From: an uncultured Methanosarcinales archaeon
GTDB taxonomy: Archaea > Nanobdellota > Nanobdellia > Woesearchaeales > JAGVZT01
DNA length: 64,000 nt
NCBI GenBank assembly: GCA_964419615.1
Contig: CAYQPU010000002.1
Location: 9,778-73,777 of the forward strand
Direction of reading: 5' to 3'
Shown here: positions 5,670-22,089 of the stretch, in pieces
Position numbering within the stretch: position 1 is the first letter of the stretch
Layout: each line of letters opens with the position of its first letter
Notes under the pieces: model-generated
Database searches by the model: none
Told to the model about the DNA's origin: nothing
Seen by the model: the letters and a program-made list of their open reading frames with translations, nothing else
Made by a program: the position numbers and the translations under genes

Positions 5670-5670
5670 A

Positions 5671-6576
5671 ATGGAAGATACACAAACAATAATTCTTGTG
5701 ACTGGTGATTGCAACCAGAACTGTGTATTTTGTTCTGGAGAGCAAAGCGGTGCAGATAGAGAAGCTCAGAGTGATGAAGAGATTCTAAAACTCATTAAAA
5801 ATTAAAAGTGCACTCTTTCTATTGAGGGAGGAGAACCAACATTATCAAACAAACTTGCAGAATACACAGTAATTTCAAAAAAAGGAGGAACCAAAGACAT
5901 TATTCTTGTGACAAACGGTGTTAGATTATGTTATAAAGATTACTGCAAAAAATTACTCAAAGCAGGAGTCACTTTATTTAACATTAACTTCCCTCACAGT
6001 GATGAGAAAAAATGTGATGCTATAACACGAACAAAAGGTCATTATAAACTAAGAAAAAAAGGAATTAAGAACTTAATTGAACTCGGAGCAGGAGACAAAG
6101 TAAGGTTTAATTTTGTTATCAATAAAACAAATTTTGACAACATGGTTGATTATGTCAAGATGGTTAAAACCGAATTTCCTGAGATATTCTATATTGAGTT
6201 TAATTATGTCAAAGTATTAGGATATGTAAAAAAGAGAAAAGCACTTGTACCAACATTAACTCAGGTTCAACCATTCTTTAATAAAGCACTGGAATTCTGC
6301 AAGAAAAATGATGTAAGAATAATTGTAGATGGAATTCCTCTTTGCTTGATGCAAGGATATGAGCATCTAAACATTGACACACAATTCATCATAGATTCCA
6401 TACTTAACCCATTTATTGAAGAAAAAATCAAACCCAAGGTTTGTAATTCCTGTTCACTAAGTAAAATTTGTTCAGGAATGAGAAAAGATTATTATGAAAT
6501 ATTTGGAGCTGATGAACTTAAACCTTCTAGTACAAACCCCAAGCAAATTATAAAAATAATAAAATGCAAAGAATAG
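5671..6576 (+). pseudogene. Radical SAM paralog interrupted by an in-frame TAA
   Basis: MEDTQTIILVTGDCNQNCVFC (CxxxCxxC) from 5671. An in-frame TAA at 5803-5805 is followed in the same frame by KCTLSIEGGEPTLS (the GGEP motif). The ORF track lists only 5908..6576. The C-terminal CNSCSLSKICSGMRKDYYEIFGADELKP matches the paralog motif. Confidence 0.6.
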
Positions 6577-7481
6577 ACCTTCAATTAAACATGACCTGCA
6601 ATGAGAATTGTTTATTTTGCGCTTCAGCTGATGGCTCAAATTCATTTACAGACACTAAGAAATCAATTGAAATAATTCAGGATGCAATTGAATCTGGTGT
6701 GACAGATATCTGTTTTTCTGGTGGAGAACCCACCTTAAGAGACGATCTTCCAATATTAGTTAATTACATCAAAAAACAAAATCCACTGATTAAAGTTACT
6801 GTATTAACAAATGCTATGAGGCTTTGTTATGAATGGTACTCAAAAAAACTAGACAAAGTGGATTATTTTAACATCTCGGTTCATGGTTCAAATAGTAAAC
6901 CAAATGATGCACTAACCCGAACTCCAGGAAGTTTTGATAAAACAATATCTGGAGCAACAGTGATTCAAGAATTAGGTTATACTTTTGGATTTTATTTTGT
7001 TATAACTAAAACTAACTATAAGGAGATTGTCGAGTTTGCAGAGTTTGTAAAAAAGAATTTTCCAAAATGTAAGGCCATTACATTTTCTTTCCCATATTTA
7101 TCAGGGAACATGCTCAAACATTTATTCTTATTGCCAAAACTTTCAAAAATAAGTCCTTTGTTGGATGAATCTAAGAAACTATGTGAAGATGCAGGAATTG
7201 GATGGGAATTATCCAGTTGCGGTCTTATGCCATTATGTACTTTAAGTGTGCCAATCAGAGCAAAGGTAATAAAGAATAATGAGTCTTATAATGAAGAATC
7301 AATTCAAACAACATCACAAGAAGGAAATAAAGATTATGTGGTAACAAAACAAAACTATCAGAACCAACATTTTGTTAGGAGCTCTGCTTGTGAGAATTGC
7401 ACCCACAATTCTTTGTGTCCAGGTGTGTGGAAACAATATTCAGAAATCTATGGTACAGACGAGCTAAAGACTATTCACTAA
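6564..7481 (+). CDS. Radical SAM protein, MoaA/PqqE-like paralog
   Basis: CNENCLFC at the N-terminus, GGEPTLRDDL, TNAMRL, and the C-terminal CENCTHNSLCPGVWKQYSEIYGTDELK. Confidence 0.7.
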   Translation: MQRIDLQLNMTCNENCLFCASADGSNSFTDTKKSIEIIQDAIESGVTDICFSGGEPTLRDDLPILVNYIKKQNPLIKVTVLTNAMRLCYEWYSKKLDKVDYFNISVHGSNSKPNDALTRTPGSFDKTISGATVIQELGYTFGFYFVITKTNYKEIVEFAEFVKKNFPKCKAITFSFPYLSGNMLKHLFLLPKLSKISPLLDESKKLCEDAGIGWELSSCGLMPLCTLSVPIRAKVIKNNESYNEESIQTTSQEGNKDYVVTKQNYQNQHFVRSSACENCTHNSLCPGVWKQYSEIYGTDELKTIH

Positions 7482-7524
7482 ATGTTTTTTTGAAACCTGA
7501 AGCTTTAAACTTGGGTTAATTCTC

Positions 7525-9162
7525 TTATGCTTTGATAGAATGTTTATTTATCTCTTTATATGCAATCTCCCTGAATTCTACTGGATCACCTGTTCTTGGT
7601 GAAAGTTCTTTAAATGAATTAAGTATTTCTTTGTGTATTATATTTTCAGTGTTTTCTTTATTAAGTTGATTTATTTTCAGCATTGCAGATTCACCTGTAA
7701 AAACATAATCGATGCGAAACAATGCCTCTTCCTTGCCAACTACAACCTTAATCAGATTGTCTGAATAATATTTATTAATTGCTTCAATTATTTTTTCTTT
7801 TCCGATAAAAAACAGACCATAAAAGAACTTGTCTTTTCCTGTTTTTGGCAGATAATAAATCTGATCACCTTCTTCTCTTACTTGTCCCAGCTGCTTTAGC
7901 TTTTCAAGTGGCTCAGAAAAAACATCATTCAACTCTTTTTTGAAGTTTTGCTTAAAATTACTTTTTGAGATTTGGGATATGTTTACAATAATCTCAAAGA
8001 CAAACCTTTGCATTTCTTCAGCTTCTGAGAACTCAATCATGCTAAATTTACTTTTTATTGGATCTAAGGTGGGTGGGTTGCTAAAGTAACGAATTTTATT
8101 TTTAATATATGAACTAGCATGATGACCAAGTCCCAACACAGATCCTTTACAATCAACATTAAAGTGATACACATCTGGTATTTTCTGGGCAGAAGAAAGC
8201 AAAAAGAGCATTGAAGCGGCATTTCCTGCATCAAGTATTCTCTCATCTGGAGATTCATATCCCTTGCTTACAGCATACTTGATTATTTGGGGCATGCACT
8301 CTCTTAGTTCATTAAAATGCTTTTGAAATTCACCAAGACTTCCATTAAAATACTTTTTCAGATATGAGACTGTAGGCTGGCATTTGTAAAGCCTAACTGT
8401 TGTAGGCTGAAGATCAAGTAATCTCTTAAAACTTTTTGTAAAGGTCTTTTTTGTATCTTTGTATAGTCCAATTATCATATCTGTGTTATACTGTTCAAAG
8501 CCAAGCTCTCTGCAATTTGTAATGCATTTTGTGATCATATCTTCATTTTGATAATCTCTATTTATTGACTTAAGAACATTCAAATTTAGTGACTGTACTC
8601 CAAAACTAACCCTATTAAATCCAGCTTGTTTTAATATTTTCAATTTATTGAATGTTGTGCTCTGAGGATTTAATTCAAATGTTTTTTCACTGGTGTCTAA
8701 AAAACTTGCATATCTAAAGAATATTTCAAGTATCTCTGATAAGTCAGTATTATCAAAAAGACTTGGAGTCCCGCCTCCAAAATACAGATTATGGAACTTT
8801 CTTTTTTTTAGCACTTCTTTAAAAAGATGTATTTGATTAATCAGACATTCTGCATATTCCTTTACCTGTCTCTTGTTTTTAACAATTCCTTTATGATATA
8901 TGCAAAAATAGCACTTTGAATAACAATAAGGCACACCAATATAAACATTAATCTTATCAGTTTTATTATCAGACAGATAACTTAGCCATTTTTTCCTTAT
9001 ATAATCTCCATTAACTACCTTTGATTTTTTAAGCAGCTGCCTTTCAAATAAATCTGTTAAAAAGAAATTGTGGTGATAGCCATGTTTTTTTAATTGATCC
9101 ATGTAAAAAGAATACACAAACTTCTCAGCTTTGATCTCTTTGTTTATGTCTTTTAAGTCCAT
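7525..9162 (-). CDS. HemN/HemW-like radical SAM protein (coproporphyrinogen-III-oxidase family fold) with a C-terminal extension
   Basis: YIGVPYCYSKCYFCIYH matches the HemN-type Cx3Cx(F/Y)C signature. FGVQSLN matches the HemN-family GVQS motif. 545 aa. Confidence 0.65.
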   Translation of the reverse strand: MDLKDINKEIKAEKFVYSFYMDQLKKHGYHHNFFLTDLFERQLLKKSKVVNGDYIRKKWLSYLSDNKTDKINVYIGVPYCYSKCYFCIYHKGIVKNKRQVKEYAECLINQIHLFKEVLKKRKFHNLYFGGGTPSLFDNTDLSEILEIFFRYASFLDTSEKTFELNPQSTTFNKLKILKQAGFNRVSFGVQSLNLNVLKSINRDYQNEDMITKCITNCRELGFEQYNTDMIIGLYKDTKKTFTKSFKRLLDLQPTTVRLYKCQPTVSYLKKYFNGSLGEFQKHFNELRECMPQIIKYAVSKGYESPDERILDAGNAASMLFLLSSAQKIPDVYHFNVDCKGSVLGLGHHASSYIKNKIRYFSNPPTLDPIKSKFSMIEFSEAEEMQRFVFEIIVNISQISKSNFKQNFKKELNDVFSEPLEKLKQLGQVREEGDQIYYLPKTGKDKFFYGLFFIGKEKIIEAINKYYSDNLIKVVVGKEEALFRIDYVFTGESAMLKINQLNKENTENIIHKEILNSFKELSPRTGDPVEFREIAYKEINKHSIKA

Positions 9163-9296
9163 ATTACTAAAAAGAAGTTTAATGTATAAATAATTTATTA
9201 TAACGAGAATTTTTCAATTAAGAGAAATATGTATTAAAAAAACTTAACAATACATTTATTAACTATTATGCTATACTTTTGTCTTGTGAAACTTTA

Positions 9297-10193
9297 ATGA
9301 CAAATGTTATGGAAATTACCGTAGGATATAAGTGCAATTGTAATTGTAGGTTTTGTTCTGTTGGTCATATGAGAAAAGAATTAACTCTTAGTACAGACCA
9401 AATTAAAAATAAAATTTTGGAAGCAAAAGAAAAAAACATACCAAATATTGGTTTTGGTGGTGGTGAACCAACTATTAGAAAAGATCTTTTTGAGGTCGTA
9501 TCCTTTGCCAAAAAACAGGGATTTAAAGTTATCAGAATCCAAACTAATGGAGTAATGCTTGGTTATGATACTTTTGTTGATAAATTACTCAAAGCAGGAG
9601 CAACATTCTTTAAAATCTCAATCCATGGTCATAATGCAAAGATACATGACCATCTAACTCAATTACCAGGTAGTTTTAATATGGCAATTAAAGGAATAAA
9701 AAACCTTAAAAAAAGAGGTATGTCAGTTGAAATCAATATTGTAATTAACAAATTAAATTACAAGTACCTGCCTCAAATAACTGACTTTTTTATAAAAATG
9801 CAGATTTACAAGTTCTGCTTTATTTATCCTGTTTATGAAGGTAATCTGATTGATAATTTTGGTAAGATTGGCGTAAAGCTAGGTGAAATTTCTCCTTACT
9901 TGACAGATGCTCTGGATAGGGTTAAAGAGCTTGATCTTGACAAAGGAATTTGTCTAAATGTGCCTCCATGTATCCTAAGCCAAGATCCAGATATGCACTA
10001 TGGTTATGTTTACAAGTTTGATACAGTTGTATCAACACCACAAGGAACCAATGACATAGATAATTCAAATAAAGAGAATCTAGTTAAGCCAAAGCAGTGC
10101 AGAAGATGTGTTTTTAATAAAAACTGTATGGGTATATATAAGAGTTACACTAGGTTTTTTGGGATTGATGAGTTTAAACCAGTTCTTAAGTGA
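9297..10193 (+). CDS. Radical SAM protein, MoaA/PqqE-like paralog
   Basis: YKCNCNCRFC, GGGEPTIRKDL, IQTNGVML, and the C-terminal CRRCVFNKNCMGIYKSYTRFFGIDEFKPV. The track ORF starts at a TTG at 9279; the ATG at 9297 is preferred by analogy with the paralog N-termini. Confidence 0.7.
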   Translation: MTNVMEITVGYKCNCNCRFCSVGHMRKELTLSTDQIKNKILEAKEKNIPNIGFGGGEPTIRKDLFEVVSFAKKQGFKVIRIQTNGVMLGYDTFVDKLLKAGATFFKISIHGHNAKIHDHLTQLPGSFNMAIKGIKNLKKRGMSVEINIVINKLNYKYLPQITDFFIKMQIYKFCFIYPVYEGNLIDNFGKIGVKLGEISPYLTDALDRVKELDLDKGICLNVPPCILSQDPDMHYGYVYKFDTVVSTPQGTNDIDNSNKENLVKPKQCRRCVFNKNCMGIYKSYTRFFGIDEFKPVLK

Positions 10194-10961: not shown

Positions 10962-11468
10962 GTGTGTGTGAATGTGAAAAACAGATTATGGGTTATATTA
11001 TCAATCTTCAGTTTATTTATGCTTTTGAGTGGATGTAATACAAATGAAGGGGTTAATATGAAGGATTCATTAGACAAACAACAGAAAGTTAGAATTTCGG
11101 ATGTTAGAGACTTAAACGCATATTATGAACCACCAGACGGATTTAGGTTCATTTTTGGCTTAGTTGTTGAAGATCAGGAAGTAGCAAGAAATGGTTTGTT
11201 GAATGTGACCATATCATCAAAAAAAGGTAAGTTGCTGTTAGAGAAATCAATTAACGTAAAATCCAAGGAATTCGGGAAATACACTGTTAATTCAAATAGT
11301 GTGGATAAGGAAATTTTAAGTTATTCTGGTAAGATTCCAATTAGTGAATTCAATGAATCTGAAGTTCCTGAGGGATTGTTTTGTTTAGGTTTTAAGGACT
11401 CAGAAGGAAATCAATTTAATCAAATCTGTTCAAATGTGAAAGGGCTTCCACCTTTCCATAATGATTGA
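10962..11468 (+). CDS. Putative secreted lipoprotein
   Basis: N-terminal signal with a lipobox-like LLSGC (MCVNVKNRLWVILSIFSLFMLLSGCNT). 168 aa; no other recognisable domain. Confidence 0.35.
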   Translation: MCVNVKNRLWVILSIFSLFMLLSGCNTNEGVNMKDSLDKQQKVRISDVRDLNAYYEPPDGFRFIFGLVVEDQEVARNGLLNVTISSKKGKLLLEKSINVKSKEFGKYTVNSNSVDKEILSYSGKIPISEFNESEVPEGLFCLGFKDSEGNQFNQICSNVKGLPPFHND

Positions 11469-11511
11469 CTTATAAGCAAAGCTTAAATACACATTTCTTA
11501 ACTCATTTTAC

Positions 11512-12624
11512 ATGGAATTGATCATTGATATTTTGTCTATAATCTGTGTAATCATTTTAGGGATTATCACAAGCTATGAAGATATTAAAGAGAATAAAAT
11601 AAGAAACAAATGGGTGGGACCTGCAATTCTAATTGCTTTGGTTTTATTCATCGCAAGAATTGCGAGTGTGAAAATCCTTGGACAAGGCCTCGTCTCTGGA
11701 TATATCTGGGAATATCTGTCCAATTTTGTATTGTCTTTTGGAGTAGGTTTTGTTATATGGGAATTAAAACTTTGGAATGCGGCTGATTCAAAGTTAATGC
11801 TTGCCTATGCTGCATTGATCCCTTTCACATTTTATTACTGGGGTTATACAGACAAGTTCCCCAGTTTCACCCTTTTTACCAATACATTTATACCTTACTT
11901 GTTGATTGGTACAACCTACCTAATTATAAAAACAGATAAGAAAACAATATGGGATGTAATTAAACAAAAAGTAATTAGAACACTGCCAAGTTCACTTTCT
12001 ATGATTATAGGTTTCTTATGGATTACTAATAAGTTTACTAGCTTGCTTAATTTTAGTGGGACAGAGAGATTTAATATTGTTATTGTCATAGCTATGATGA
12101 TTATATCTGAAAGATATTTAAAAGTGAAAGTTACCTATCTGGGAATCGGGCTCAGTTTACTAGCAGTAATTCTTGACTTTAACATGTTTGACCTAAAGTT
12201 TTTTCTTAAGATGTTAAAGACCATTTTCTTTTATATTATGTTAAGGTTTTTTATTGTAAGCTTAGGATTCAAATTCTTTACAAAAAGAGTCAGAGTTGCA
12301 GATCTTGAGCCAGGGATGGTTCTTGCAGACAAAATAATAGAGAGTGAAGGCAAGTATAGAGTACAGGAAAGGATTCAGATCAGTATTTCACAAGCTGTTT
12401 TAGAAAAAGTTAAAGCAGATGATGTAATTAAGCCAAATCCTGAGGGACTAAGCAAAGAAGAAATTGAAAAAATCAAAAATTTGCGCAAATCAAAAAAACT
12501 AGACATTTATTCAGTGAATATTGCAAAGATTTATCCTTTTGCTCCGTTTTTGTTTTTAGGAGTAATTCTAACCCTTATTTGTAAAGGAAGTGTACTCACA
12601 AGAATCTATATGTTGTTAACATAA
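11512..12624 (+). CDS. A24-family prepilin/preflagellin peptidase-like polytopic membrane protein with a C-terminal soluble extension
   Basis: N-terminal TM then SYEDIKENKIRNKWVG (first catalytic Asp motif of the PibD/FlaK type). Second motif NAADSKLMLAYAAL (GxxD-KL-like). About 8 TM segments. Confidence 0.45.
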   Translation: MELIIDILSIICVIILGIITSYEDIKENKIRNKWVGPAILIALVLFIARIASVKILGQGLVSGYIWEYLSNFVLSFGVGFVIWELKLWNAADSKLMLAYAALIPFTFYYWGYTDKFPSFTLFTNTFIPYLLIGTTYLIIKTDKKTIWDVIKQKVIRTLPSSLSMIIGFLWITNKFTSLLNFSGTERFNIVIVIAMMIISERYLKVKVTYLGIGLSLLAVILDFNMFDLKFFLKMLKTIFFYIMLRFFIVSLGFKFFTKRVRVADLEPGMVLADKIIESEGKYRVQERIQISISQAVLEKVKADDVIKPNPEGLSKEEIEKIKNLRKSKKLDIYSVNIAKIYPFAPFLFLGVILTLICKGSVLTRIYMLLT

Positions 12625-12679
12625 TTAAACATAAGATATAAAAAGTCAACAGAAAAGTTTAAATAACTACCAACATATC

Positions 12680-13135
12680 TTGAAAATTGGTGAGAGGATG
12701 GATGTAATAAAAACTATTGACAATATCTCAATATATAAAGATAATGTAGTACTTAGTGTGAATGAAAAAATATATCCTCTGGATATAATCTATTCTGCTT
12801 CCTATGTGTTTATGGATCGGGCATATGTTGTGATGGGTGGAGGTGGAGATGATTCAGAGGTTTTGGTGACTCTGAGGCCCAAAAAGAAAGAAAATCTAGA
12901 AGAACTTGGTAGGGATTTTAATAATGAGCTTATTAATTATGCTGTTTACAAAGAACAAAGTGTCAAGAGTAGAGGGATTAAAGAAACAATTGTTCGAAAA
13001 GCACTTGAATCTAATGTCCCAAGTTCAGGCGAATGTTCTGATGATGAATTGGGTGAGGACTCTGATGAGAGCTATAAAGATGATCCTTTAGGCATAGCTG
13101 TTCCATGGGAAGAAAAGGAAGGGAAGAATGAATAA
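12680..13135 (+). CDS. Small acidic protein, paralog of the next gene; candidate HxsD-like accessory protein
   Basis: 151 aa. It shares ...Y..D..YV.....G...VLVTL+PK.K..L+ELG.+F.N.LI... with 13128..13373. ELINYAVYKE loosely resembles the LLNDYxLRE signature I recall for the His-Xaa-Ser system protein HxsD. It lies immediately upstream of the SPASM maturase. Confidence 0.3.
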   Translation: MKIGERMDVIKTIDNISIYKDNVVLSVNEKIYPLDIIYSASYVFMDRAYVVMGGGGDDSEVLVTLRPKKKENLEELGRDFNNELINYAVYKEQSVKSRGIKETIVRKALESNVPSSGECSDDELGEDSDESYKDDPLGIAVPWEEKEGKNE

Positions 13136-13373
13136 TATCACAGTAAAAAAAGGGGTTGTTCGAATATTGGTTGATACCCGGTACTATGGTTTTGGAGCAG
13201 TACTCACAGCTGCAAAGGCATACCTGGATTCCTGTTGGGTCTTTGTTGATGGGGATCTTGAAGATCAGGTTTTGGTTACATTAAAACCTAAAGACAAGAA
13301 AATTGATGTAGATTTGTTAGGATTCGAGTTTTTTAATTTTATGCTGGGGACAATTCAAAATGCCTACACCTAG
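13128..13373 (+). CDS. Small protein, paralog of 12680..13135; candidate HxsD-like
   Basis: 81 aa. VLVTLKPKDKKIDVDLLGFEFFNFMLG aligns with VLVTLRPKKKENLEELGRDFNNELINY of the preceding gene. It overlaps its neighbours by 8 and 14 nt (operonic). Confidence 0.3.
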   Translation: MNNITVKKGVVRILVDTRYYGFGAVLTAAKAYLDSCWVFVDGDLEDQVLVTLKPKDKKIDVDLLGFEFFNFMLGTIQNAYT

Positions 13374-14784
13374 GGCTTTTGATTTTATTGGTAGAACTAA
13401 GAAAATTGGTTCCAAGTATTTTGTTGCAAATATAGATGGTTCTTTTACTATGTTAACTGAAGAGGAGTATAGGAATCTTCTTTTAAAGAATCTTGACAAA
13501 GAGCTTTTTTTGGATTTAGAATCCAAGGGAGTTATTATCACGAGTAAGAATATTGATGTTATTGCTGGGCATTTTAGAAGAAGAAGGCAGGTTGTTTATC
13601 AGGGACCAAATTTACATATAGTCATACCAACTTTGAGGTGCAACCAGGTTTGTCTTTATTGTCATGCAGCCTCAAGAAGAATGGATGCCAAAGATTGTGA
13701 TATGGATAAGGAAACTGCAAAAAAAACTGTAGAATTTATTTTCCAGACTCCCTCCAGACCAATAACAATAGAATTCCAGGGGGGCGAGCCGCTTGTTAAG
13801 TTTGACATTATTAAATATATGCATAAATATGCAAACGAACTAAACAAGAAATATGAAAAAGACATTAGGTTTTCTATTGTTTCAAACCTAACATTGATGG
13901 ATGATAAAAAATTGGATTTTATAACAAAGAACATTATTGGGCTTTGTACAAGCCTGGACGGTCCAAAATACGTGCATGATAAGAACAGAAAGATGATTGG
14001 CGGATCTGGGAGCTATAACCTTGTTACAAATTGGATTCGAACATTTAATCAAGGATACAAGGAAGGCTATGCAAAACTTAATGCACTTGCAACCATCACC
14101 AGGCATTCTTTACCTTACCCAAAAGAAATCATTGATGAATATAAAGATTTAGGTTTGCGCGGAGTTTGGCTTAGGTGGGTGGACCCATTTGGATTTGCTG
14201 GATTTGCGTGGGACAAGATCAGCTATAGTGCTGAAGAATTTCTTGAGTTTTGGAAAAAGGGAGTAGATTATGTGTATGATGAATTAAAGGGATTTAAAGA
14301 GCTATCTTCTCTAATTTTGCTTCGAAAGATTTTTGCAAGATATGAACCCGCTTTTTTGGACATACTTAACCCGTGTGGTGCTGGCATTGGCCAGATGGCA
14401 TATATGCACGATGGCAGTATCTACAGCTGTGATGAGGGCAGAATGTATGGGGGAGACTTCTTTAAATTAGGGAATGTTAACCAATCATTTAGTAAAGTTA
14501 TGAGCTCTCCTAAAATGTGCAGCCTTATTGCGAGTTCTGTTAGTGAAAGCTATTTTTGTGATCATTGTGTATATCAACCTTATTGCGGGGTGTGTCCAGT
14601 CTGGAATTTTGCAGACACTGGCACTGTTGTTCCAAAATTGTCAATGGATCTTAGATGTAAAATATTAACCGGTCAGTTTGACTATTTGATTAATAAATAC
14701 TTCACTAATAAAAAATTCCAAAAAACAGTGGATAAGTTAATCAAATTGGGTGATTCTCAGATAGAAAAGAATCTGTGTATTTAA
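13360..14784 (+). CDS. Radical SAM/SPASM-domain maturase (anSME-like; HxsB/HxsC-like) with a ~95-aa N-terminal extension
   Basis: CNQVCLYCHAAS (CxxxCxxC), FQGGEPLV, and a C-terminal SPASM-type Cys array (CGAGIGQMAYMHDGSIYSCDEG ... CDHCVYQPYCGVCPVWNF). An N-terminal domain precedes the core and could serve as a leader-peptide recognition element. Confidence 0.75.
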   Translation: MPTPRAFDFIGRTKKIGSKYFVANIDGSFTMLTEEEYRNLLLKNLDKELFLDLESKGVIITSKNIDVIAGHFRRRRQVVYQGPNLHIVIPTLRCNQVCLYCHAASRRMDAKDCDMDKETAKKTVEFIFQTPSRPITIEFQGGEPLVKFDIIKYMHKYANELNKKYEKDIRFSIVSNLTLMDDKKLDFITKNIIGLCTSLDGPKYVHDKNRKMIGGSGSYNLVTNWIRTFNQGYKEGYAKLNALATITRHSLPYPKEIIDEYKDLGLRGVWLRWVDPFGFAGFAWDKISYSAEEFLEFWKKGVDYVYDELKGFKELSSLILLRKIFARYEPAFLDILNPCGAGIGQMAYMHDGSIYSCDEGRMYGGDFFKLGNVNQSFSKVMSSPKMCSLIASSVSESYFCDHCVYQPYCGVCPVWNFADTGTVVPKLSMDLRCKILTGQFDYLINKYFTNKKFQKTVDKLIKLGDSQIEKNLCI

Positions 14785-14795
14785 TTTTGCAAAAA

Positions 14796-14804
14796 TTTAT
14801 ATAT
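14796..14804 (+). promoter_or_regulatory. Candidate TATA box (tttatatat) for the precursor gene, with the SD-like ggaaggtga at 14829-14837
   Basis: An AT-rich TATA-like octamer ~40 nt upstream of the ATG at 14841. A purine-rich ribosome-binding site is correctly spaced. Confidence 0.25.
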
Positions 14805-14840
14805 CAATAGAATTCAGATATATTAAAAAGGAAGGTGAGT

Positions 14841-15272
14841 ATGGGAAATAAAATTTTGCCAAGAGTTAAAAAATCCCTCCGAGGTTATCTTATGGGGGAG
14901 GATGGTAAGATTAGTAAGCAATCCATGCTTGTTATTGGAACTTTTTTAGGCGCTGCAGCGCTCTCCACAATCACTATAAGTAAAAGCGTTAGTGCCCAAC
15001 ATGTGTCTCATGGTTCACATTGTTCTCATAGCAGCCACAGTGCCCATAGCAGCCATAGTTCACATAGCAACCACGGAAGTCACAGCAGTCACGGTTCTCA
15101 CGGAAGTCACGGTTCTCATGGATCCCATGGATCCCATGGTAGTCATGGTTCCCATAGTAATCATGGTAGTCATGGAAGCCATGGTTCCCATGGTTCCCAT
15201 GGTTCCCATAGTAATCATGGTAGTCATGGATCTCATTGGAATGGATGCTGGCCGGGAGCTAACGTCATATAG
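14841..15272 (+). CDS. His-Xaa-Ser repeat precursor-like protein (HxsA-like): leader with a hydrophobic segment plus ~30 tandem H-G-S/H-S-S/H-x-S triplets
   Basis: MGNKILPRVKKSLRGYLMGEDGKISKQSMLVIGTFLGAAALSTITISKSVSAQ, then HVSHGSHCSHSSHSAHSSHSSHSNHGSHSSH(GSH)n...HSNHGSHGSHWNGCWPGANVI. The ATG at 14841 with its SD is preferred over the track's GTG at 14835. It sits between two SPASM radical-SAM genes. Confidence 0.6.
   Translation: MGNKILPRVKKSLRGYLMGEDGKISKQSMLVIGTFLGAAALSTITISKSVSAQHVSHGSHCSHSSHSAHSSHSSHSNHGSHSSHGSHGSHGSHGSHGSHGSHGSHSNHGSHGSHGSHGSHGSHSNHGSHGSHWNGCWPGANVI
14995..15235 (+). repeat. Tandem 9-bp coding repeat (tcc cat gga / agt cat ggt variants) encoding the (HGS)n array
   Basis: Direct reading shows tcacggaagtcacggttctcatggatcccatggatcccatggtagtcatggttcccat... 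with near-perfect periodicity of 9 nt. Confidence 0.8.
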
Positions 15273-15300
15273 ATTGTAAAACCATTATTTTTGTATTGAA

Positions 15301-17238
15301 ATGCAAATCAGATTATTTAACATTAAAAAGAAGAAGTTTGAATATATTAATGAAAGAGATATCTCTAATCATCTAAGTGAGTTAGATAAGCTAATTCATA
15401 TTGTAAGCAACCATAGAAATAGATATTATTACTTACCAAAAAAAACCGCAATAATTGAAATCCCAAAAAGTATCTCTTGTTACCAGTCTCATCCTTCAGA
15501 CACAGAATCAGATCTGTTCAAAATTGTTGATAAGGATATAAAAAGAGACCGAGAAAAGCCTCTTTTTAAAGATCTAATTATAAATATGCACTCAAAATGT
15601 AATTTGGATTGTAAGTATTGTTTTGGATTTTCAAAAGATAAAGAGTTAGAGACACCCACTGAAACAATAGTGGCTCTCATTAGCTATCTCTATAAAAAAA
15701 GATATTCTCTGAATAGAATCTATTTCTTGGGATCTGGTGAAACACTACTTGAGTTTAATAGATTTAAAGATATAGTTTCGATACTTAAACAGTATTATCC
15801 AAATGTTCCAATAATAGTTGTTACAAATGGTATTTTATCAAAGCAAAAAATAGACTGGTTGATTAAAAGAAAGATAAATATAAGGTTGAGTTGTGATGGT
15901 CCAGCTTTTATAAATGATGTTTCTAGACCCATAAAAAATAGCACAAAAAAACCATCAGAGACAGTTCATGCTAACCTCCAATACATAGTAAAGAATACAT
16001 CTTTATTTACAATAGCACCAACTATTACAAAATTATCTCAGGGATTTGAATCAAACATACTATACTTTTTTTGGAAATTAGGTGTGAAACTTGATAAGAT
16101 CAGCTGGAACCATGCATCATGCAGAGGAAAAGCAAAGGAACAGCCTACTATCTTAATGAATTATGATGAAATTAACAGATCACAAATTGTGTGGGATGAG
16201 TTGGAAGATATACTTGGAGATTACACTAAAACAAATATGTTTGTTAATATGATGGGAACACCTTTTCTTTGTGGAACCATTAATTTTGGCTGGATCACAA
16301 TTGATGAAAGAGGATGTATTAGTAGCTGTTCAAAGCATGTAAATTCTCTGAATAATTCCTTAATTGAAAAACTTTTAATTGGAAGATATGATTTTGAATC
16401 CAAAAAAATCCTTATTTCAAGTAACTCAATTAAGAATACAAATAATTGGATTATATCTGTAATGGAAAAGACAGATTGTTTTAATTGTGAATATCTTTCA
16501 CTTTGTCGGGGCCCATGCTTCTATGATTCACTTGTGATTGAAGACAATATTGGTGAAGATAACAAAACAAATATCCAGTGTATTAAAAGGAAAAATTATG
16601 TTAATAATATCCTACAATATTTGATTGAGACTCATATGTGGAAGAAATATCCACACCACTTAGTAGAGAATGGAATAGAATACTTTAACTATTCTCATAA
16701 TAAGTTTGAGATTAGAGATCCCAATGACCTCCCAAATAAGTTTCAAAGTGCGATCAAGATTAAGATAGACGTTGAAAATAATTTAGGCAAACAAATAGAT
16801 CACTTAATTAATTTAAGTAATTCTGAAAATTATTGTTTTAGATTTTTTTTACTTGAATTTAAAATAAACTTAACCAATCCGGAACAAATAGCTAAGAAAA
16901 TAAACCACTTTCTTGGAAAATTACAGCAAAATTTTGTGTGTTTCCTTGTATTAAAGCCTCTCCCTTATTGTGTTAGGAGATATATTAAAAAAACTTTTTC
17001 AATACCAAACACTTGTCTTGAATGCAACAAAATGTTTACCGTAAAAGACAACAAAGTAATATTTTGTGATGGATCAGATGGGAAGAAATTTGATAAATAT
17101 GTAGACAGGACGCAGATTTTCAATGACTTTAAGAAAATTAATAAGAACACTAATAATCTCTGCCTAAATTGCATTTACAAGGATAGAAAATTATGTTTTG
17201 GTTATGTTGAAAATATTAATTGTATTGCGAACAATTAA
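15301..17238 (+). CDS. Large radical SAM/SPASM-domain protein (second maturase of the pair; HxsC/HxsB-like) with N- and C-terminal extensions
   Basis: ~100-aa N-terminal domain, then CNLDCKYCFGFS, GSGETLLEF and VVTNG. A SPASM-like CFNCEYLSLCRGPCFYD is followed by a Cys-rich tail (CLECNKMF..FCDGSD..CLNCIYKDRKLCFGY). 645 aa. Confidence 0.65.
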   Translation: MQIRLFNIKKKKFEYINERDISNHLSELDKLIHIVSNHRNRYYYLPKKTAIIEIPKSISCYQSHPSDTESDLFKIVDKDIKRDREKPLFKDLIINMHSKCNLDCKYCFGFSKDKELETPTETIVALISYLYKKRYSLNRIYFLGSGETLLEFNRFKDIVSILKQYYPNVPIIVVTNGILSKQKIDWLIKRKINIRLSCDGPAFINDVSRPIKNSTKKPSETVHANLQYIVKNTSLFTIAPTITKLSQGFESNILYFFWKLGVKLDKISWNHASCRGKAKEQPTILMNYDEINRSQIVWDELEDILGDYTKTNMFVNMMGTPFLCGTINFGWITIDERGCISSCSKHVNSLNNSLIEKLLIGRYDFESKKILISSNSIKNTNNWIISVMEKTDCFNCEYLSLCRGPCFYDSLVIEDNIGEDNKTNIQCIKRKNYVNNILQYLIETHMWKKYPHHLVENGIEYFNYSHNKFEIRDPNDLPNKFQSAIKIKIDVENNLGKQIDHLINLSNSENYCFRFFLLEFKINLTNPEQIAKKINHFLGKLQQNFVCFLVLKPLPYCVRRYIKKTFSIPNTCLECNKMFTVKDNKVIFCDGSDGKKFDKYVDRTQIFNDFKKINKNTNNLCLNCIYKDRKLCFGYVENINCIANN

Positions 17239-17887: not shown

Positions 17888-18817
17888 ATGGGCAAAAGAG
17901 TAGACATTAAGACTGGTTTTAAGTGCAACAATAATTGTAAGTTCTGTGTACAGGCTTGGAAAAAGCCAGAAGGCAATCGACCCAAAGAAGATATTTCTAA
18001 AGACCTGTATGATGCAAAAAAAGCAGGATGCGTGGGAGTTGTTTTTACTGGTGGAGAGGTTTCAATAAGGGCAGATTTTTTTGAGCTTTTAGAGTGTGCA
18101 CATGACATTGGATTTGCTGAAATCCAAGTACAAACAAATGCAAGAAGGTTTTATTACATGGATTTTTGCATAAAAGCAGTGAGGGCAGGCATGAATGATT
18201 TTGGGCCAGCAATTCATGGACATACAGCAGAGTTGCATGATTCATTGACACAAAGCCAAGGAAGCTTTAATCAAGCCTGCCAAGCTATAAAAAATATAAA
18301 ATCTCTTGGAGTTAATGTGATTACAAACACTGTTGTTGTTAGACCCAATTATAAGTTTATTCCAGAGATAGCAAAATTACTGGTCAGCCTTGATGTGAAT
18401 CAATACCAGTTTGCATTTATGCATGCTGTAGGCAACGCTATGGATAATTATAATAAAATGATGCCAAGAGTAAGTCTGGCTGCTCCCTACATTAAAAAAG
18501 GACTTCAGATAGGAATTGATGCAGGCAAAAAAGTAATGGCTGAAGCAATGCCTTATTGTGTTATGAAAGGATATGAGAGATACACTTCTGAACTTTACAT
18601 ACCTGAAACTGAAATTAGGGATACAACCAGTTATGATCCTGATTTTGGAAATACCAGGAGAACACAAGGAAAGGTGAAATTTTCAAAATGCAAGCAGTGC
18701 AAGTACGACCTTATCTGTGAAGGTCCATGGAAAGAGTATCCGGAAAGAATGGGCTCAAAGGAGTTTGTACCTGTGAAAGGTGACAAAATAATAAGTGCTA
18801 AGGAGATCCTATGCTAG
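17888..18817 (+). CDS. Radical SAM protein, MoaA/PqqE-like paralog
   Basis: FKCNNNCKFC, FTGGEVSIRADF, VQTNARRF, and the C-terminal CKQCKYDLICEGPWKEYPERMGSKEFVPV. Confidence 0.7.
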   Translation: MGKRVDIKTGFKCNNNCKFCVQAWKKPEGNRPKEDISKDLYDAKKAGCVGVVFTGGEVSIRADFFELLECAHDIGFAEIQVQTNARRFYYMDFCIKAVRAGMNDFGPAIHGHTAELHDSLTQSQGSFNQACQAIKNIKSLGVNVITNTVVVRPNYKFIPEIAKLLVSLDVNQYQFAFMHAVGNAMDNYNKMMPRVSLAAPYIKKGLQIGIDAGKKVMAEAMPYCVMKGYERYTSELYIPETEIRDTTSYDPDFGNTRRTQGKVKFSKCKQCKYDLICEGPWKEYPERMGSKEFVPVKGDKIISAKEILC

Positions 18818-19773
18818 AACAATATAAACCTGTTAACTATGGTGAAGAGTATGTGGAATTTTGTGGGAGTTCACAATACCCAATGTTTGTTGCAACTGCA
18901 CTAGGTGTTAAGCCTTGTTTTGATGATTGGGTTCCTTGCAATAAATATGGAGAATTTGTAGGAATCTGTAAGGAATACGGGTTATTTGTTGAGCCGGATG
19001 TGGTTTTTGTAAAAACGAGTTTAGATAAAAAACAGGTTGTAGGAGGAGACACAATTACAACAACATTTACAGAGGTTGTGCCGTTTAAGGAAAATGCCAA
19101 GAATGGGCAGGTGCATGTTTTTGTATCAAAAGCCAAAGACCAAGCAATTAGAACTAGGAGGTGTGGGTGGTATCCGGGAATTATTAGTGGCAGATCAGTA
19201 AATAAACCATTTGTTGACCACATGAGATTTGGAAAGAACTTGGGTTTCCCAGAATGCTGTGTGGATTTCTTTAGAAAGTACAATAATTGGGCAAAATACT
19301 CACACCCATACGAAAGCTATAATAGCACACCAAACAAAAGTAGTCCGTCCTCATATTATTGTAATAATTTCACAATGGATTTTATCTATTTTTATATTCA
19401 CCATATCCCATGTAATTTTAAATGCGATGCAACTATCGCTTCTGCAAAAGTTGTAGAGAATAAAATAAAAGATGTTGAACCAAAATTTGTTGAGAAAACT
19501 AATAAGATTCTAAAAAGTCCGTTGTTAGTCTTTGGTGAACGTAATTTCATATTGTTTGAGGAAGGTAATTACTCAAAAGGAGAATTAAAATACAAAAAAA
19601 CAAAATATATCTCAAATTACGCCCGAAAAGAGGATAGAGTTGGATTTATTAATGATGTTCAAAAAGGCAATAGTTTGTTTTTCAAAGATAAGAAATTATG
19701 TGTAGAGAAAAATGAAAACTTAATCTTTGAGATAGAGAAAGAGCCTGAATGGTTTATAATTGATTTTCAATAA
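18811..19773 (+). CDS. Hypothetical Cys-motif protein (GFPxCC ... HIPCxFKC); distant paralog of 43213..44115
   Basis: GFPECCVDFF ... YYCNNFTMDFIYFYIHHIPCNFKCDATI is shared with GYPKCCCKTI ... YCMNCCIPLIYHLPCSPKCQQT of the 43213 gene. Confidence 0.3.
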   Translation: MLEQYKPVNYGEEYVEFCGSSQYPMFVATALGVKPCFDDWVPCNKYGEFVGICKEYGLFVEPDVVFVKTSLDKKQVVGGDTITTTFTEVVPFKENAKNGQVHVFVSKAKDQAIRTRRCGWYPGIISGRSVNKPFVDHMRFGKNLGFPECCVDFFRKYNNWAKYSHPYESYNSTPNKSSPSSYYCNNFTMDFIYFYIHHIPCNFKCDATIASAKVVENKIKDVEPKFVEKTNKILKSPLLVFGERNFILFEEGNYSKGELKYKKTKYISNYARKEDRVGFINDVQKGNSLFFKDKKLCVEKNENLIFEIEKEPEWFIIDFQ

Positions 19774-20251
19774 AATGATTAAAGAACTTGAAGAATATCT
19801 TAGATTCCCAGTCAAAAGGGTTATTGTTAAATTAGACTATGAGACCCCTCATGATGAGGCTTTCTCATACGCAATTTGTCAGAGATTCTTTAATAAACCA
19901 GATCAGTTAAAAACTGCGATGCAACTTGGAAATAAGGCTCTCAACCAATTGCTAAAAAAAGAAGATTATATCCAGATTAGTCATCTATTTGCACTTGTTG
20001 GGAATATGTACTATCTCCAGGAGAAATATAAAATCAGTGCGGGATACTTTTTAAAGAGCATAAATTATAATAAAAAAGATCTTACCAGTTGGATTGAGCT
20101 GATATTCTCAATAAGAGCCATGGGAGATTTTGATACATTTGATAAGTGTATATTTAATCTTAAAAAGCTATATACGCTTGGACAAAGAGAAGAAGAGATT
20201 ACACAACAAACGCTGCTAAAACTAATTGAGCAGGCATGTAAAAATGGGTAA
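19760..20251 (+). CDS. Hypothetical helical protein (TPR-like repeat character)
   Basis: 163 aa, helical with an A/L/Y/K-rich periodicity. It overlaps the start of the next radical-SAM gene. Confidence 0.25.
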   Translation: MIFNKMIKELEEYLRFPVKRVIVKLDYETPHDEAFSYAICQRFFNKPDQLKTAMQLGNKALNQLLKKEDYIQISHLFALVGNMYYLQEKYKISAGYFLKSINYNKKDLTSWIELIFSIRAMGDFDTFDKCIFNLKKLYTLGQREEEITQQTLLKLIEQACKNG

Positions 20252-21149
20252 TAAATCAGAAGTAATCGGGTTGATCCATAAATGCAATTGTTTATGTATT
20301 ATGTGTCCAAATTCTTTAAGTTATCGTAAACTTAAAGATATGACTAAACTTGAATTTTTTGAGTGGGTAGACAGACTTACACCAGATGTCAACCACATTA
20401 CCTTTACAGGAGGTGAACCAACTCTCCGACGCGATTTGTTTGAGCTTATTAATTATGTTAATCAGAAGAGGCCAGACATACATATGAGGCTGCTTACAAA
20501 TGCCAGGATGTTTTATTACAAATCTTATTTGGATGATTTTCTTGCTCAAGGCCTAAAAAACCTCGAATTTGGCATCCCTATTTGTGGACCAAATGCAAAA
20601 ACCCATGATAAGGTTACAAAGGCTAAAGGTAGCTTTGAGCAAACCATGGGGGGAATGAAGAACCTCATGGCAAATGGATTTTTAGTTGAATTAAGAATTG
20701 TGATTAATAAGATCAATCTTGATGAGTTGAATAATATGTCTGAGCTGATCAAAAAAGAACTAAATGATGTACTCAGGATCACATTTTATTACATGCAAAT
20801 CACAGGAAATGCTTTAAAAAATAAGGACGAAGTTTTTATTTCATATAAAAAAATTCGTGATAAAATTGATATTGCGCTTAACAGTCTGAATGGGTTTACA
20901 ATTGGACTTTGTCATTTCCCACTTTGCACTGTTAATCCAAAATGGTGGCCAATTGTTTGGAGGAGCGTTGTTGATAGGAAGCTGTTTTTCCCTGAAAAAT
21001 GTAATTTGTGTTTGTATAAAAAGTATTGCCTGGGAGTTATGAAAAGTTATAGGGCCAATTTTGGGGTAGGAGAATTTCAGCCAATTAAACAAAAGTACAA
21101 TATTGTTGAGAGCAATGATCTAGCACGGCCAATAAAAGAGGTGCTATAA
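20226..21149 (+). CDS. Radical SAM protein, MoaA/PqqE-like paralog
   Basis: HKCNCLCIMC, FTGGEPTLRRDL, LLTNARMF, and the C-terminal CNLCLYKKYCLGVMKSYRANFGVGEFQPI. The alternative ATG at 20244 is possible. Confidence 0.7.
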   Translation: MSRHVKMGNKSEVIGLIHKCNCLCIMCPNSLSYRKLKDMTKLEFFEWVDRLTPDVNHITFTGGEPTLRRDLFELINYVNQKRPDIHMRLLTNARMFYYKSYLDDFLAQGLKNLEFGIPICGPNAKTHDKVTKAKGSFEQTMGGMKNLMANGFLVELRIVINKINLDELNNMSELIKKELNDVLRITFYYMQITGNALKNKDEVFISYKKIRDKIDIALNSLNGFTIGLCHFPLCTVNPKWWPIVWRSVVDRKLFFPEKCNLCLYKKYCLGVMKSYRANFGVGEFQPIKQKYNIVESNDLARPIKEVL

Positions 21150-22089
21150 TGCCAGAACGTATTACAATTATCCAGGATTACAGATGCAATAACAACTGTA
21201 TGTTTTGCTGTAATGGAGACAAAAGAAATGATTTCAAAGGAATGAACACAATAGAAGTAATGGAAACAATGAGGGTTGGAAGAAAAAGAGGGGCAACTTT
21301 TATTGACTTTATTGGTGGTGAGCCAACAATGAGAAGCAATATTATCCCACTTGTGAAATATGCTAAAAAATTGGGCTTTATAACTATAGCAACAACATCT
21401 AATGGGAGGATGTATTCTTATCCAGAATTTACAAAAAAAATGATTGATGCGGCCCAAATGCACAAATTCATGATTATTTAACAAGAGTTCCGGGTTCATT
21501 TGACCAGGCATTAAAAGGCATAGAAAATGCAAAAAAATTTGGTATAGAGCGAATTGAAATCAACACAACAATTGTTAAACCAAATTACAAGCATCTGCCG
21601 AAAATGGCCCAGATGTACAATGAGCTAGGAGTTGCTGAACCTAATTATATCTTTCCAGATCCTACGCCTATTGGATATGCATATAAATACTTTGATGAAA
21701 TAGTCCCAACATACACAGAATCAATGCTTTATGTTAGAAAAGCTATTCAGGTAGGGGTTGATGGTTTAAATGACCAGATACTAACACAATATGTTCCCGC
21801 ATGTTTTATGAAAGGCTATGAAAAACATATAGGTGAGTTCTTTTTTGAACCTGAAACAGAACATCATGCTTCAGATTTTATTAATGAGAATGTTATTGAG
21901 GGAAGAAAACAAGCAGGAAAATTAAAAGGTCCTCAATGCCGCAAATGTAAATTTGATCCAGTCTGTGAGGGAGTATGGAAACAATATGGTAAGAAGATAG
22001 GCCTTCATGAACTAGTGCCTGTTCCAGGAAAACCATTTAGAACAAAGAAAGAACTCTTGATTGAGTTCTACGGTGAAGAGACTTTGTGA
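21149..22089 (+). pseudogene. Radical SAM paralog disrupted by a -1 frameshift in a GCGGCCC run (~21449-21455)
   Basis: The N-terminal part (21149-21481) carries YRCNNNCMFC and IGGEPTMRSNI. The C-terminal part (21604-22089, a different frame) carries CRKCKFDPVCEGVWKQYGKKIGLHELVPV. Re-reading in the shifted frame from 21451 gives GPNAQIHDYLTRVPGSFDQALKGIENAKKFG, which aligns with the paralog FGPAIHGHTAELHDSLTQSQGSF. Confidence 0.6.

Follow-up and report, generated by a model that had tools for sequence, protein, structure and literature searches.

The precursor gene, its leader and its relatives

The window analysed here is a stretch of 64,000 nucleotides from an uncultured archaeon (contig CAYQPU010000002.1). 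Between positions 10962 and 17238 it carries a gene for a protein built of His-x-Ser triplets, set among genes for radical S-adenosylmethionine (radical-SAM) enzymes. A first-pass annotation had read this region as an archaeal version of the bacterial His-Xaa-Ser (HXS) system, which comprises a precursor (HxsA), a radical-SAM pair (HxsB and HxsC) and the small protein HxsD. These families, HxsA to HxsD, are reportedly defined by Haft's TIGRFAMs. All of the open reading frames (ORFs) that the annotation named are present, on the + strand and where it had placed them. The genes follow the order A24-like peptidase, HxsD, a second HxsD-like protein (HxsD'), HxsB, precursor and a 645-residue radical-SAM enzyme (Table 1). 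From 11512 to 17238, the distances between neighbours range from an overlap of 14 nucleotides to a gap of 57 nucleotides, which is operon-like. As a positive control, the annotated hxsDBCA locus of Aeromonas was run against the same family models and behaved as expected.

The first 53 residues of the precursor (MGNKILPRVKKSLRGYLMGEDGKISKQSMLVIGTFLGAAALSTITISKSVSAQ) consist of a leader, a hydrophobic stretch and the tripeptide SAQ, and His-x-x triplets follow. The leader, encoded from 14841 to about 14906, has an invariant Gly (Gly22 counted from the ATG) as its last residue. The hydrophobic segment lies at about 14925–14978, and SAQ forms an AxA-like site. The repeat comprises 27 consecutive, in-register triplets (15000–15242), and the protein closes with the tail GCWPGANVI. 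The layout described earlier was correct, although the triplets number 27 and not about 30. A strict HxS sequence is found in 22 of the 27 (16 HGS, 4 HSS, 1 HVS and 1 HCS); the other five are 3 HSN, 1 HSA and 1 HWN. Gly, which had been called the invariant Xaa, is therefore only in the majority here (16 HGS of 27), and it is the commonest Xaa across the family. The repeat far exceeds what chance could give, and Tandem Repeats Finder reported periods of 9, 18 and 54 nucleotides. Among the 16 HGS units there are 8 different 9-nucleotide spellings, with Ser codons of both families. Thus, the periodicity is maintained at the protein level and not only by recent DNA slippage, and the varied spelling points to selection acting on the protein repeat.

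The precursor passes the NCBIfam model for HxsA4, NF038313, with 88.3 bits against a cutoff of 55; the match spans residues 8–106 and so takes in leader and repeats. Conversely, there was no match to the canonical HxsA model, TIGR03979, at E≤0.01 (cutoff 121.65 bits; 230.6 bits for the Aeromonas HxsA control). The predicted HxsA-type precursor was thus recovered as HxsA4 and not as canonical HxsA. A Pfam search found no peptidoglycan-binding domain in the protein. Scanning all six frames of the window with a hidden Markov model of the leader revealed no precursor other than 14841–15272.

Searches with the precursor returned 622 homolog clusters (E≤1e-3), from Omnitrophota, Aminicenantes and DPANN archaea. 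In the 120 best homologs, Xaa was Gly 575 times, Ser 407 times, Ala 216 times and Thr 84 times. Gly, Ser or Ala account for about 81% of Xaa residues, and Arg and Lys together for less than 4%. The number of HxS triplets per homolog has a median of 13 and a maximum of 29, so that both Gly as Xaa and the repeat number are unexceptional for an HxsA4-type protein. Frequent C-termini are HGSHGQW, HGSW, HSSY and GGWC. One homolog is already named 'His-Xaa-Ser repeat protein HxsA4 [Candidatus Omnitrophota bacterium]'. A homolog from Diapherotrites is annotated as 'hypothetical' because its HxsA4 score, 50.7 bits, is under the cutoff of 55. The suggestion that such a system would be undescribed must therefore be withdrawn: NCBIfam already models HxsA3, HxsA4, HxsD_rel and HxsC4, the type is catalogued and the family is large. 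A literature search found no publication on HxsA3, HxsA4, HxsD_rel, HxsC4 or a DPANN version.

Gene callers mis-frame HxS-repeat genes, and as a result the family is under-counted in public annotation. On a JGI contig identical to the window, an out-of-frame ORF at 14992–15279 (+1 frame) had been called. We rejected this ORF as a true gene because the conserved leader and the HxsA4 match are confined to the HGS frame. The mis-framed call also explains why the window precursor is absent from a collection of 5.8 billion protein clusters, in which the best match has 62% identity. The called ORF encodes 89 residues and overlies the HxS-repeat gene (2633–2902 in L001). At L012/L013, the real leader-bearing gene at 3993–4457 was overlaid by calls of another ORF and of one on the minus strand (3583–3996 and 4122–4394 in L012).

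We compared the window with 12 related loci. These come from Diapherotrites, Woesearchaeota (two), a metagenome-assembled genome (MAG) labelled 'Methanosarcinales', unclassified archaea, Omnitrophota, Aminicenantes and metagenomes. In every locus with enough flanking sequence, genes for HxsD, HxsB or radical-SAM enzymes of the HxsC family or the 645-residue family adjoin the precursor. A module of A24 peptidase, HxsD, HxsD', HxsB and a leader of about 25 residues recurs in DPANN archaea, Omnitrophota and Aminicenantes. The pair HxsD and HxsD' is found in 8 of the 12.

The leader is carried by 119 of the 120 best precursor homologs. Its consensus, from 111 sequences, is (F/L/I)-P-x-I-K-K-x-I-x-x-F-L-x-x-E-(E/D)-(G/A)-(K/N/R)-I-(S/T)-(K/R), after which come a hydrophobic stretch and an AxA-like site. 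Gly or Ala occupies its position in 111/111 sequences, P and E are each present in 107, F in 91 and KK in about 90%. The cores behind this leader vary. At L016, the same leader and enzymes accompany a Cys-rich CGxTG repeat with no HxS. At L007 the leader precedes short Cys-rich tails, at L008 a 215-residue His/Cys-rich protein, and at L009 a protein of more than 900 residues with HDNCH...HSNC repeats. Since one leader and enzyme module serves cores that lack HxS triplets, recognition is apparently leader-based, with implications for the targets that HxsB, HxsC and HxsD actually recognise. The L009 protein, from an Aminicenantes MAG (5573–8503, minus strand), has the same leader and then dozens of HDNCHTESHSNCHSNC(S/T)YPES repeats. 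It is by far the largest cargo that we met for this leader.

Enzymes encoded beside the precursor

HxsB was identified with TIGR03978, which it matches with 421.3 bits (cutoff 370; 649 bits for the Aeromonas HxsB control), and it is 35% identical to Aeromonas HxsB. It has a CxxxCxxC motif at residue 94 and SPASM cysteines at 387–412; its Pfam SPASM score, 20.8 bits, is slightly under the cutoff of 21.5. In the 645-residue enzyme the CxxxCxxC motif is at residue 100. The motif positions indicate an N-terminal extension of about 90–100 residues in each protein, and both have a C-terminal CxxCx5CxxxC pattern of the SPASM type. The description of the flanking genes as a radical-SAM/SPASM pair with N-terminal extensions of about 95 residues was therefore accurate. 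Their assignment as HxsB and HxsC was right for the first enzyme only; HxsC-like genes lie elsewhere in the window, outside the coordinates that had been proposed. By sequence, the solved structure closest to HxsB is CteB (5wgg, 106 bits).

The 645-residue enzyme passes the TIGR04085 SPASM model (29.2 bits; cutoff 27). Its best named family is HxsB, with only 57.7 bits against a cutoff of 370. We rejected its assignment as HxsC: TIGR03977 is absent from its 25 best-scoring families, and both BLAST and a tree with a true HxsC disagree with it. The protein has a β-rich N-terminal domain (residues 1–55) and a C-terminal domain of about 190 residues with a conserved CxxC...C. Cysteines C100/104/107 and C324...C393-x2-C396-x5-C402-x3-C406...C427 are invariant in 43 homologs. 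An exhaustive HMMER search of 1.84 billion proteins returned about 50 representatives at E≤1e-30. A word-indexed search gave only one relative, even with a profile of 5 sequences. An AlphaFold2 model built with 43 sequences had a predicted local distance difference score of 86 and a predicted template-modelling score of 0.89. Its best fold matches in Foldseek were CteB, anSME, TigE and ChlB (CteB E 3e-15, 455–480 aligned columns). In the window, L002, L004 and L016, the gene comes immediately 3' of the precursor. At L012/L013 a B12-type radical-SAM gene stands between the two. The closest precursor homolog, P0001, shares one 2.8-kb contig with a member of the 645-residue family, P0133. In total, six independent contexts place the gene beside the precursor.

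The membership test also covered cyclophane-synthase families, namely GrrM/OscB, YhhB, XyeB, FxsB and AmcB. HxsB scored 66.2, 62.0 and 58.8 bits against triceptide-type families, and the 645-residue enzyme 54.7 and 44.3 bits.

The two small proteins upstream are paralogous, as first thought: HxsD' is 32% identical, over 74 residues, to the N-terminal part of HxsD. The 151-residue HxsD passes TIGR03976, although marginally (51.9 bits; cutoff 50), which upholds the earlier identification. A protein identical to it, from the JGI contig, has a recorded Pfam match to PF27806 (HxsD). Alignment places FNNELINY of the window protein opposite the canonical LLNDYxLRE. Long-form HxsD proteins of this class also have an acidic tail ending DP(L/M/K)GI(A)xPW(E), which canonical HxsD does not have and which might serve for docking. 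HxsD' scores 22.5 bits against NF038315 (HxsD_rel; cutoff 41), and its Omnitrophota ortholog scores 63.2 bits. Using jackhmmer, HxsD' could be tied to the small ORF located after HxsD in L002, L003, L006, L007, L008 and L009. Its gene overlaps that of HxsD by 8 nucleotides and that of HxsB by 14 nucleotides.

The first gene of this operon-like run encodes a polytopic membrane protein that matches Pfam Arc_PepC (PF06819) with 40.8 bits, above the cutoff of 23.4. Among 8 members of its family, 6 match Peptidase_A24 (best E 1.4e-11) and 6 match Arc_PepC. Two residues, D24 (SYEDIKENKIRN, a D...N motif) and D92 (WNAADSKL, resembling GxGDxKL), are invariant across 8 homologs. A homolog is present in 9 of the 12 related loci (L002, L003, L004, L006–L010 and L016), usually in the order A24-like, HxsD, HxsD', HxsB. 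The gene was not found in L012/L013, L014 and L015, which are short or cut contigs. We regard the protein as a candidate leader peptidase of the system. The combination of a putative peptidase encoded in cis and an invariant Gly/Ala in the leader makes cleavage at this residue a directly testable hypothesis.

HxsC-family paralogs, other neighbours and the host

Seven small radical-SAM paralogs of the HxsC family are encoded in the window, all outside 10962–17238, and two of them are broken (Table 1). The region from 3.0 to 22.1 kb contains about 10 radical-SAM genes, a HemN-like one included, together with a SufS-like desulfurase. The best HxsC ortholog candidate, 20226–21149, lies 5.4 kb from HxsB. 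It is 26% identical to residues 103–373 of Aeromonas HxsC, does not have the canonical N-terminal domain of about 100 residues, and clusters in a neighbour-joining tree with canonical HxsC, L003_11422 and L002_9090. The Aeromonas HxsC control scored 396 bits. The orthogroup of 17888–18817 is common to L004, L009, L010 and L012, with 46–51% identity to the orthologs in L004, L010 and L012. In 9279–10193 the cysteine motifs are CxxxCxxC at 19 and CxxCx5C at 274–283.

The gene at 21149–22089 is split. Its first piece (21149–21481) corresponds to residues 1–102 of its paralogs, and its second (21604–22089) to residues 161–305. About 12 residues are missing and the frame shifts near 21455; L002, L003 and L004 have intact orthologs. 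The gene at 5671–6576 reads MEDTQTIILVTGDCNQNCVFC...LIKN*, and the same frame resumes in ORF 5908–6576. Its stop may reflect a pseudogene, a sequencing error or read-through. The TAA follows codon 44, shortly downstream of CxxxCxxC. The closest paralog, with 40% identity, is 3020–4450. The extra domain of that protein occupies residues ~280–476, about 200 residues, and contains CxxC-type cysteines at 349, 370, 373, 379, 410, 436 and 439. The two broken genes suggest birth-and-death turnover of radical-SAM paralogs. In a rough neighbour-joining tree, some orthogroups are common to the Omnitrophota locus and archaeal loci, and three window paralogs form a local expansion.

Table 1. Features of the window, in order of position.
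Feature	Coordinates	Strand	Basis
HxsC-family radical-SAM protein with extra Cys-containing C-terminal domain	3020..4450	+	HxsC 103 bits
SufS-like cysteine desulfurase	4440..5669	+	TIGR01979 346 bits (cutoff 475); Aminotran_5 317 bits
HxsC-family gene with in-frame TAA at 5803–5805	5671..6576	+	C-terminal part 46.6 bits to HxsC
HxsC-family small radical-SAM paralog, window-specific clade	6564..7481	+	HxsC4 122, HxsC 99 bits; tree
HemN/HemZ-like radical-SAM protein	7525..9162	-	NCBIfam 140–151 bits, all under cutoffs
HxsC-family small radical-SAM paralog	9279..10193	+	HxsC4 145.8, HxsC 116.7 bits, both under cutoff
Lipoprotein-like 168-residue ORF, lipobox ...LLSGC at start	10962..11468	+	no family match
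A24-like (FlaK/PibD-like) polytopic membrane protein, putative aspartyl peptidase, 370 residues	11512..12624	+	Pfam, invariant Asp
HxsD, long form with acidic C-terminal tail carrying DPLGIAVPW	12680..13135	+	TIGR03976
HxsD', small HxsD-like paralog, 81 residues	13128..13373	+	NF038315, paralogy, jackhmmer
HxsB radical-SAM/SPASM maturase	13360..14784	+	TIGR03978
Putative archaeal TATA-like box TTTATATA	14796..14803	+	inferred from sequence reading only
Putative Shine-Dalgarno-like element GGAAGGTGA, upstream of precursor	14830..14838	+	inferred from sequence reading only
HxsA4-class precursor	14841..15272 (ATG 14841, or in-frame GTG 14835)	+	NF038313 match, leader, triplet count
645-residue radical-SAM/SPASM enzyme, rare unnamed family of 600–650 residues	15301..17238	+	TIGR04085, fold
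HxsC-family small radical-SAM protein, ~300 residues, CxxxCxxC at 13, C-terminal CxxCx5C	17888..18817	+	HxsC4 154, HxsC 84 bits
320-residue accessory protein, weak DUF483 match	18811..19773	+	Pfam 20.1 bits (cutoff 25); homolog only in L002
163-residue protein inside second radical-SAM operon	19760..20251	+	no family match
Best HxsC ortholog candidate, core only	20226..21149	+	TIGR03977 208.5 bits (cutoff 267.9)
Disrupted HxsC-family gene, two ORF pieces	21149..22089	+	paralog comparison
Two tandem PMT_2 genes (GT-C, dolichyl-phosphate-mannose protein mannosyltransferase-like)	22068..23579, 23667..25166	-	Pfam 44.7, 34.1 bits

The lipoprotein-like ORF upstream of the peptidase gene does carry the lipobox-like LLSGC that its earlier label implied. 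Its homolog was not found in any of the related loci, the closest one (L006) included, and it is probably outside the system. Five candidates were rejected as core parts because they have no homologs in related loci: this ORF, the HemN-like gene (7525), the SufS-like gene (4440), the 163-residue ORF (19760) and a minus-strand ORF of 145 residues (17216). The SufS-like protein is a possible source of Fe-S supply. The PMT_2 genes, 42% identical paralogs, follow directly after the radical-SAM island, and L002, L004 and L009 also have such genes a few kb or less from the system. As a weak lead, these enzymes may glycosylate the exported Ser-rich repeat.

The host is probably a Woesearchaeota-like DPANN archaeon with the locus on its chromosome, much as had been proposed. 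Besides the Arc_PepC domain, the window encodes a PriS-type primase, CTP synthase, cysteinyl-tRNA synthetase and Lhr helicase, and its G+C content is a uniform ~33%. The closest homologs of four proteins are in a 'Candidatus Woesearchaeota' MAG from the Red Sea (HxsB 72%, HxsD 63%, HxsD' 84% and A24-like 56% identity). The ORF at 31737–35198 (+) lies in the only part of the window with elevated G+C (0.41 versus ~0.33). It encodes a secreted protein of 1153 residues that is extremely rich in Cys, Gly, Asp, Ser and Thr, has no Pfam match and is probably a DPANN surface protein. A DDE_Tnp_1 transposase-like ORF at 41079–41741 (+), well away from the locus, is the one sign of a mobile element that we noticed. 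Scans for Rfam families and tRNAs returned no match in the window.

A reading of the locus and its comparison with known systems

The canonical HXS system of Escherichia coli is a broad antiphage system that blocks phage DNA entry (Li et al., 2026, Nat Commun 17:3910, PMC13128918). Before export, HxsA undergoes an N-terminal cleavage of non-canonical type and a site-specific modification, both of which depend on each of HxsB, HxsC and HxsD, and HxsC binds HxsD (PMC13128918). The only change detected in HxsA is a single +8 Da, in the last repeat; neither the protease behind the cleavage nor the maturase chemistry has been established in E. coli (PMC13128918). A model for DNA binding by HxsA invokes basic repeats (PMC13128918). 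In a survey confined to bacteria, 99.7% of HXS systems were in Pseudomonadota, and the gene order was D-B-C-A in 99.6% (PMC13128918).

We consider it likely that the window locus is a divergent, enlarged HXS-type maturation system of the HxsA3/HxsA4 class in an archaeon of the DPANN type, probably Woesearchaeota-like. The conserved leader would dock the unexported precursor onto cytoplasmic machinery of HxsD, HxsD' and radical-SAM enzymes. HxsB, the 645-residue enzyme and the HxsC-family paralogs might then each install their own radical-mediated modification in the His/Ser-rich core. The A24-like peptidase would clip the leader after the invariant Gly/Ala, at the cytoplasmic face of the membrane. 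What is left (a Lys-rich n-region, the hydrophobic stretch and the A-x-A-like site) could serve to export or anchor the protein. The final location of the modified His-rich repeat would be extracellular, and the neighbouring PMT_2 enzymes may O-glycosylate it.

Several observations weigh against parts of this reading. The lack of an HxsA match and of a peptidoglycan-binding domain, together with the few basic residues in the repeat, mean that the DNA-binding mechanism of E. coli may not transfer. No window protein reaches the cutoff for HxsC (TIGR03977, 267.9 bits) or HxsC4 (NF038332, 500 bits). The top HxsC4 score in the window is 154.2 bits, and the Omnitrophota locus with the named HxsA4 has only 207.7 bits. 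The window's A24-like protein, called an A24 peptidase in the first-pass annotation, scored 22.8 bits against Peptidase_A24 (PF01478), slightly under the cutoff of 26.5. A profile of the A24-like family reached no solved structure by sequence. The residues at the proposed cleavage site, E-E-G|K-I-S-K, are unlike the usual class III site, [K/R]-G|hydrophobic, and the conserved Gly might rather belong to a recognition motif for the maturases. Finally, L002 has no HxsB within 20 kb, and our sample of neighbourhoods is small and was chosen through homology rather than at random.

A wider reading, which we offer tentatively and at somewhat less than even chances, is that the HxS repeat is one cargo of a leader-directed platform found across domains. 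Such a platform would combine recognition by HxsD and HxsD', leader removal by the A24 peptidase and up to ten radical-SAM enzymes, and would produce modified His- or Cys-rich extracellular polymers with antiviral or metal-handling roles. Its hosts would be ultra-small or episymbiotic lineages (DPANN archaea and Omnitrophota) and Aminicenantes. If so, this would be the first A24-family leader peptidase tied to radical-SAM maturation, and a candidate for the unidentified protease step of bacterial HXS.

As for the chemistry, HxsB and/or the 645-residue enzyme might turn each His-x-Ser into a three-residue cyclophane, giving about 22–27 rings at −2 Da each. The first-pass annotation had noted a fit with such triceptide-type chemistry. 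The motif has three residues and begins with His, both flanking enzymes resemble SPASM peptide maturases, and radical-SAM enzymes forming crosslinks from His C2 to Cβ, HtkB and HaaB, are described (PMC11499958). We nevertheless found no support for cyclophanes and judge them unlikely. HxsB is closer to thioether-forming maturases (PapB, 148 bits; SCIFF maturase, 133 bits) than to GrrM, YhhB and AmcB, for which it has 59–66 bits, far under the cutoffs. The change in E. coli is +8 Da on one repeat and not −2 Da per repeat (PMC13128918), and the same leader and enzymes accompany cores without HxS (CGxTG at L016, Cys-rich at L007 and L008). A related question is whether the precursor is a subunit like a type IV pilin, in which case the A24 peptidase would cleave off a class III signal peptide and a filament, assembled through the hydrophobic N-terminus, would display the His-rich tail. 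A dedicated peptidase with FlaK-like architecture (A24 domain plus Arc_PepC), an invariant Gly/Ala ahead of a hydrophobic helix, and T2SSE and T2SSF genes 4–10 kb upstream in L002 fit this idea. We think it improbable, since between the Gly and the hydrophobic stretch lie six residues, mostly polar or charged (K-I-S-K-x-x), and positions −1 and −2 are acidic, both unlike known class III sites. Moreover, an AxA-like signal-peptidase site follows the hydrophobic stretch, and genes for pilus assembly did not turn up in the other loci or in the scanned parts of the window.

Going by homology to the E. coli system, our leading guess at a role is a cell-envelope barrier against incoming viral DNA, with metal capture by the repeat protein as the main alternative. 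That the mature repeat is an antiviral envelope effector, blocking entry of viral DNA into the archaeal cell, fits the homologous HxsB and HxsD and the exported HxS-repeat effector of the phage-blocking system (PMC13128918), as well as a patchy cross-domain distribution of the kind seen for accessory and defence genes. It also fits L016, where genes for AbiEii, HEPN and nucleotidyltransferase proteins are interleaved with the system. We hold this view with low confidence. The E. coli model needs basic repeats, whereas the homologs mostly have small residues as Xaa and few of Arg or Lys; the precursor lacks the peptidoglycan-binding domain; PADLOC matched only a generic viperin-type radical-SAM protein; and the window neighbourhood is one of housekeeping genes (CTP synthase, cysteinyl-tRNA synthetase, primase) and no defence island. 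Interleaved genes at L016 (3867–7149 and 14302–15409), among them AAA_14/DUF4143, make up the only context resembling a defence island that we saw. The His-rich protein could instead be a plain secreted binder of Ni, Zn or Cu, with the radical-SAM genes nearby unrelated to it. Its composition of His, Ser and Cys, a weak match of one homolog to ZrgA (zinc uptake) and genes for CutA1, Cu-oxidase_4 and DsbD upstream in L003 are compatible with this. It is nonetheless highly improbable: maturase genes adjoin the precursor wherever the flanks are long enough, the leader is conserved far beyond the needs of a signal peptide, and in bacteria HxsB and HxsD are partnered specifically with HxS proteins.

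For an HXS-type maturation system, the window adds an archaeal host, a recurring A24-like peptidase and second HxsD, a rare 645-residue SPASM partner, a swarm of HxsC paralogs, and a leader-centred logic with variable cores. It thus extends HXS to a deep-branching relative that DPANN archaea carry on the chromosome and that Omnitrophota and Aminicenantes also have.

Set beside CteB-type maturases, HxsB and the 645-residue enzyme share the N-terminal domain, the radical-SAM barrel and a two-cluster SPASM architecture. Identity to solved SPASM maturases (CteB/SCIFF, 5wgg and 5why; anSME, 4k37; TigE, 8vpo; ChlB, 9gm3) is only 15–18%, and the 645-residue enzyme adds its C-terminal domain of about 190 residues, with CxxC...C, for which there is no matched counterpart. 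As with triceptide synthases, HaaB and HtkB included, the window has a three-residue repeat unit with an aromatic residue or His first and a radical-SAM/SPASM gene beside the precursor. HxsB has no specific sequence relationship to them (59–66 bits against cutoffs of 310–445). The A24-like protein resembles the class III A24 signal peptidases FlaK, PibD and EppA in its polytopic form, its two putatively catalytic Asp motifs and its C-terminal Arc_PepC domain, and the putative substrate here also has Gly/Ala before a hydrophobic helix. The window protein differs in belonging to a distinct subfamily that is present in bacteria as well (Omnitrophota, Aminicenantes), in its genetic tie to radical-SAM maturases rather than to pilus or archaellum genes, and in the atypical EEG|KISK.

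Among catalogued HXS families, the window precursor passes HxsA4 and has a leader in common with HxsA3 (NF038309), HxsD' probably belongs to the HxsD_rel lineage, and the small radical-SAM proteins match HxsC4 best. The named HxsA4 of an Omnitrophota MAG (P0012) lies in L003, a locus with the same gene set as the window. Conversely, HxsD' and the HxsC-like paralogs are under the model cutoffs, and the A24 peptidase and the 645-residue family have no model. Compared with canonical HXS, the order is A24-D-D'-B-A-[645-residue enzyme] and not D-B-C-A, and the A24 peptidase, the second HxsD, the 645-residue SPASM enzyme, the multiple HxsC paralogs and the archaeal host are additional. Canonical HxsA has 5 triplets and not 27, with Arg or Ser rather than Gly as Xaa; only canonical HxsA has a peptidoglycan-binding domain, and only the window precursor has the long conserved leader. 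What the two systems share is an HxsB ortholog, an HxsD ortholog with an LLNDYxLRE-like motif, a protein of tandem His-x-Ser units that is, or is predicted to be, exported, and radical-SAM enzymes of the HxsC lineage nearby. The E. coli effector also undergoes a maturase-dependent, non-canonical N-terminal cleavage, comparable to the one proposed here for the archaeal precursor.

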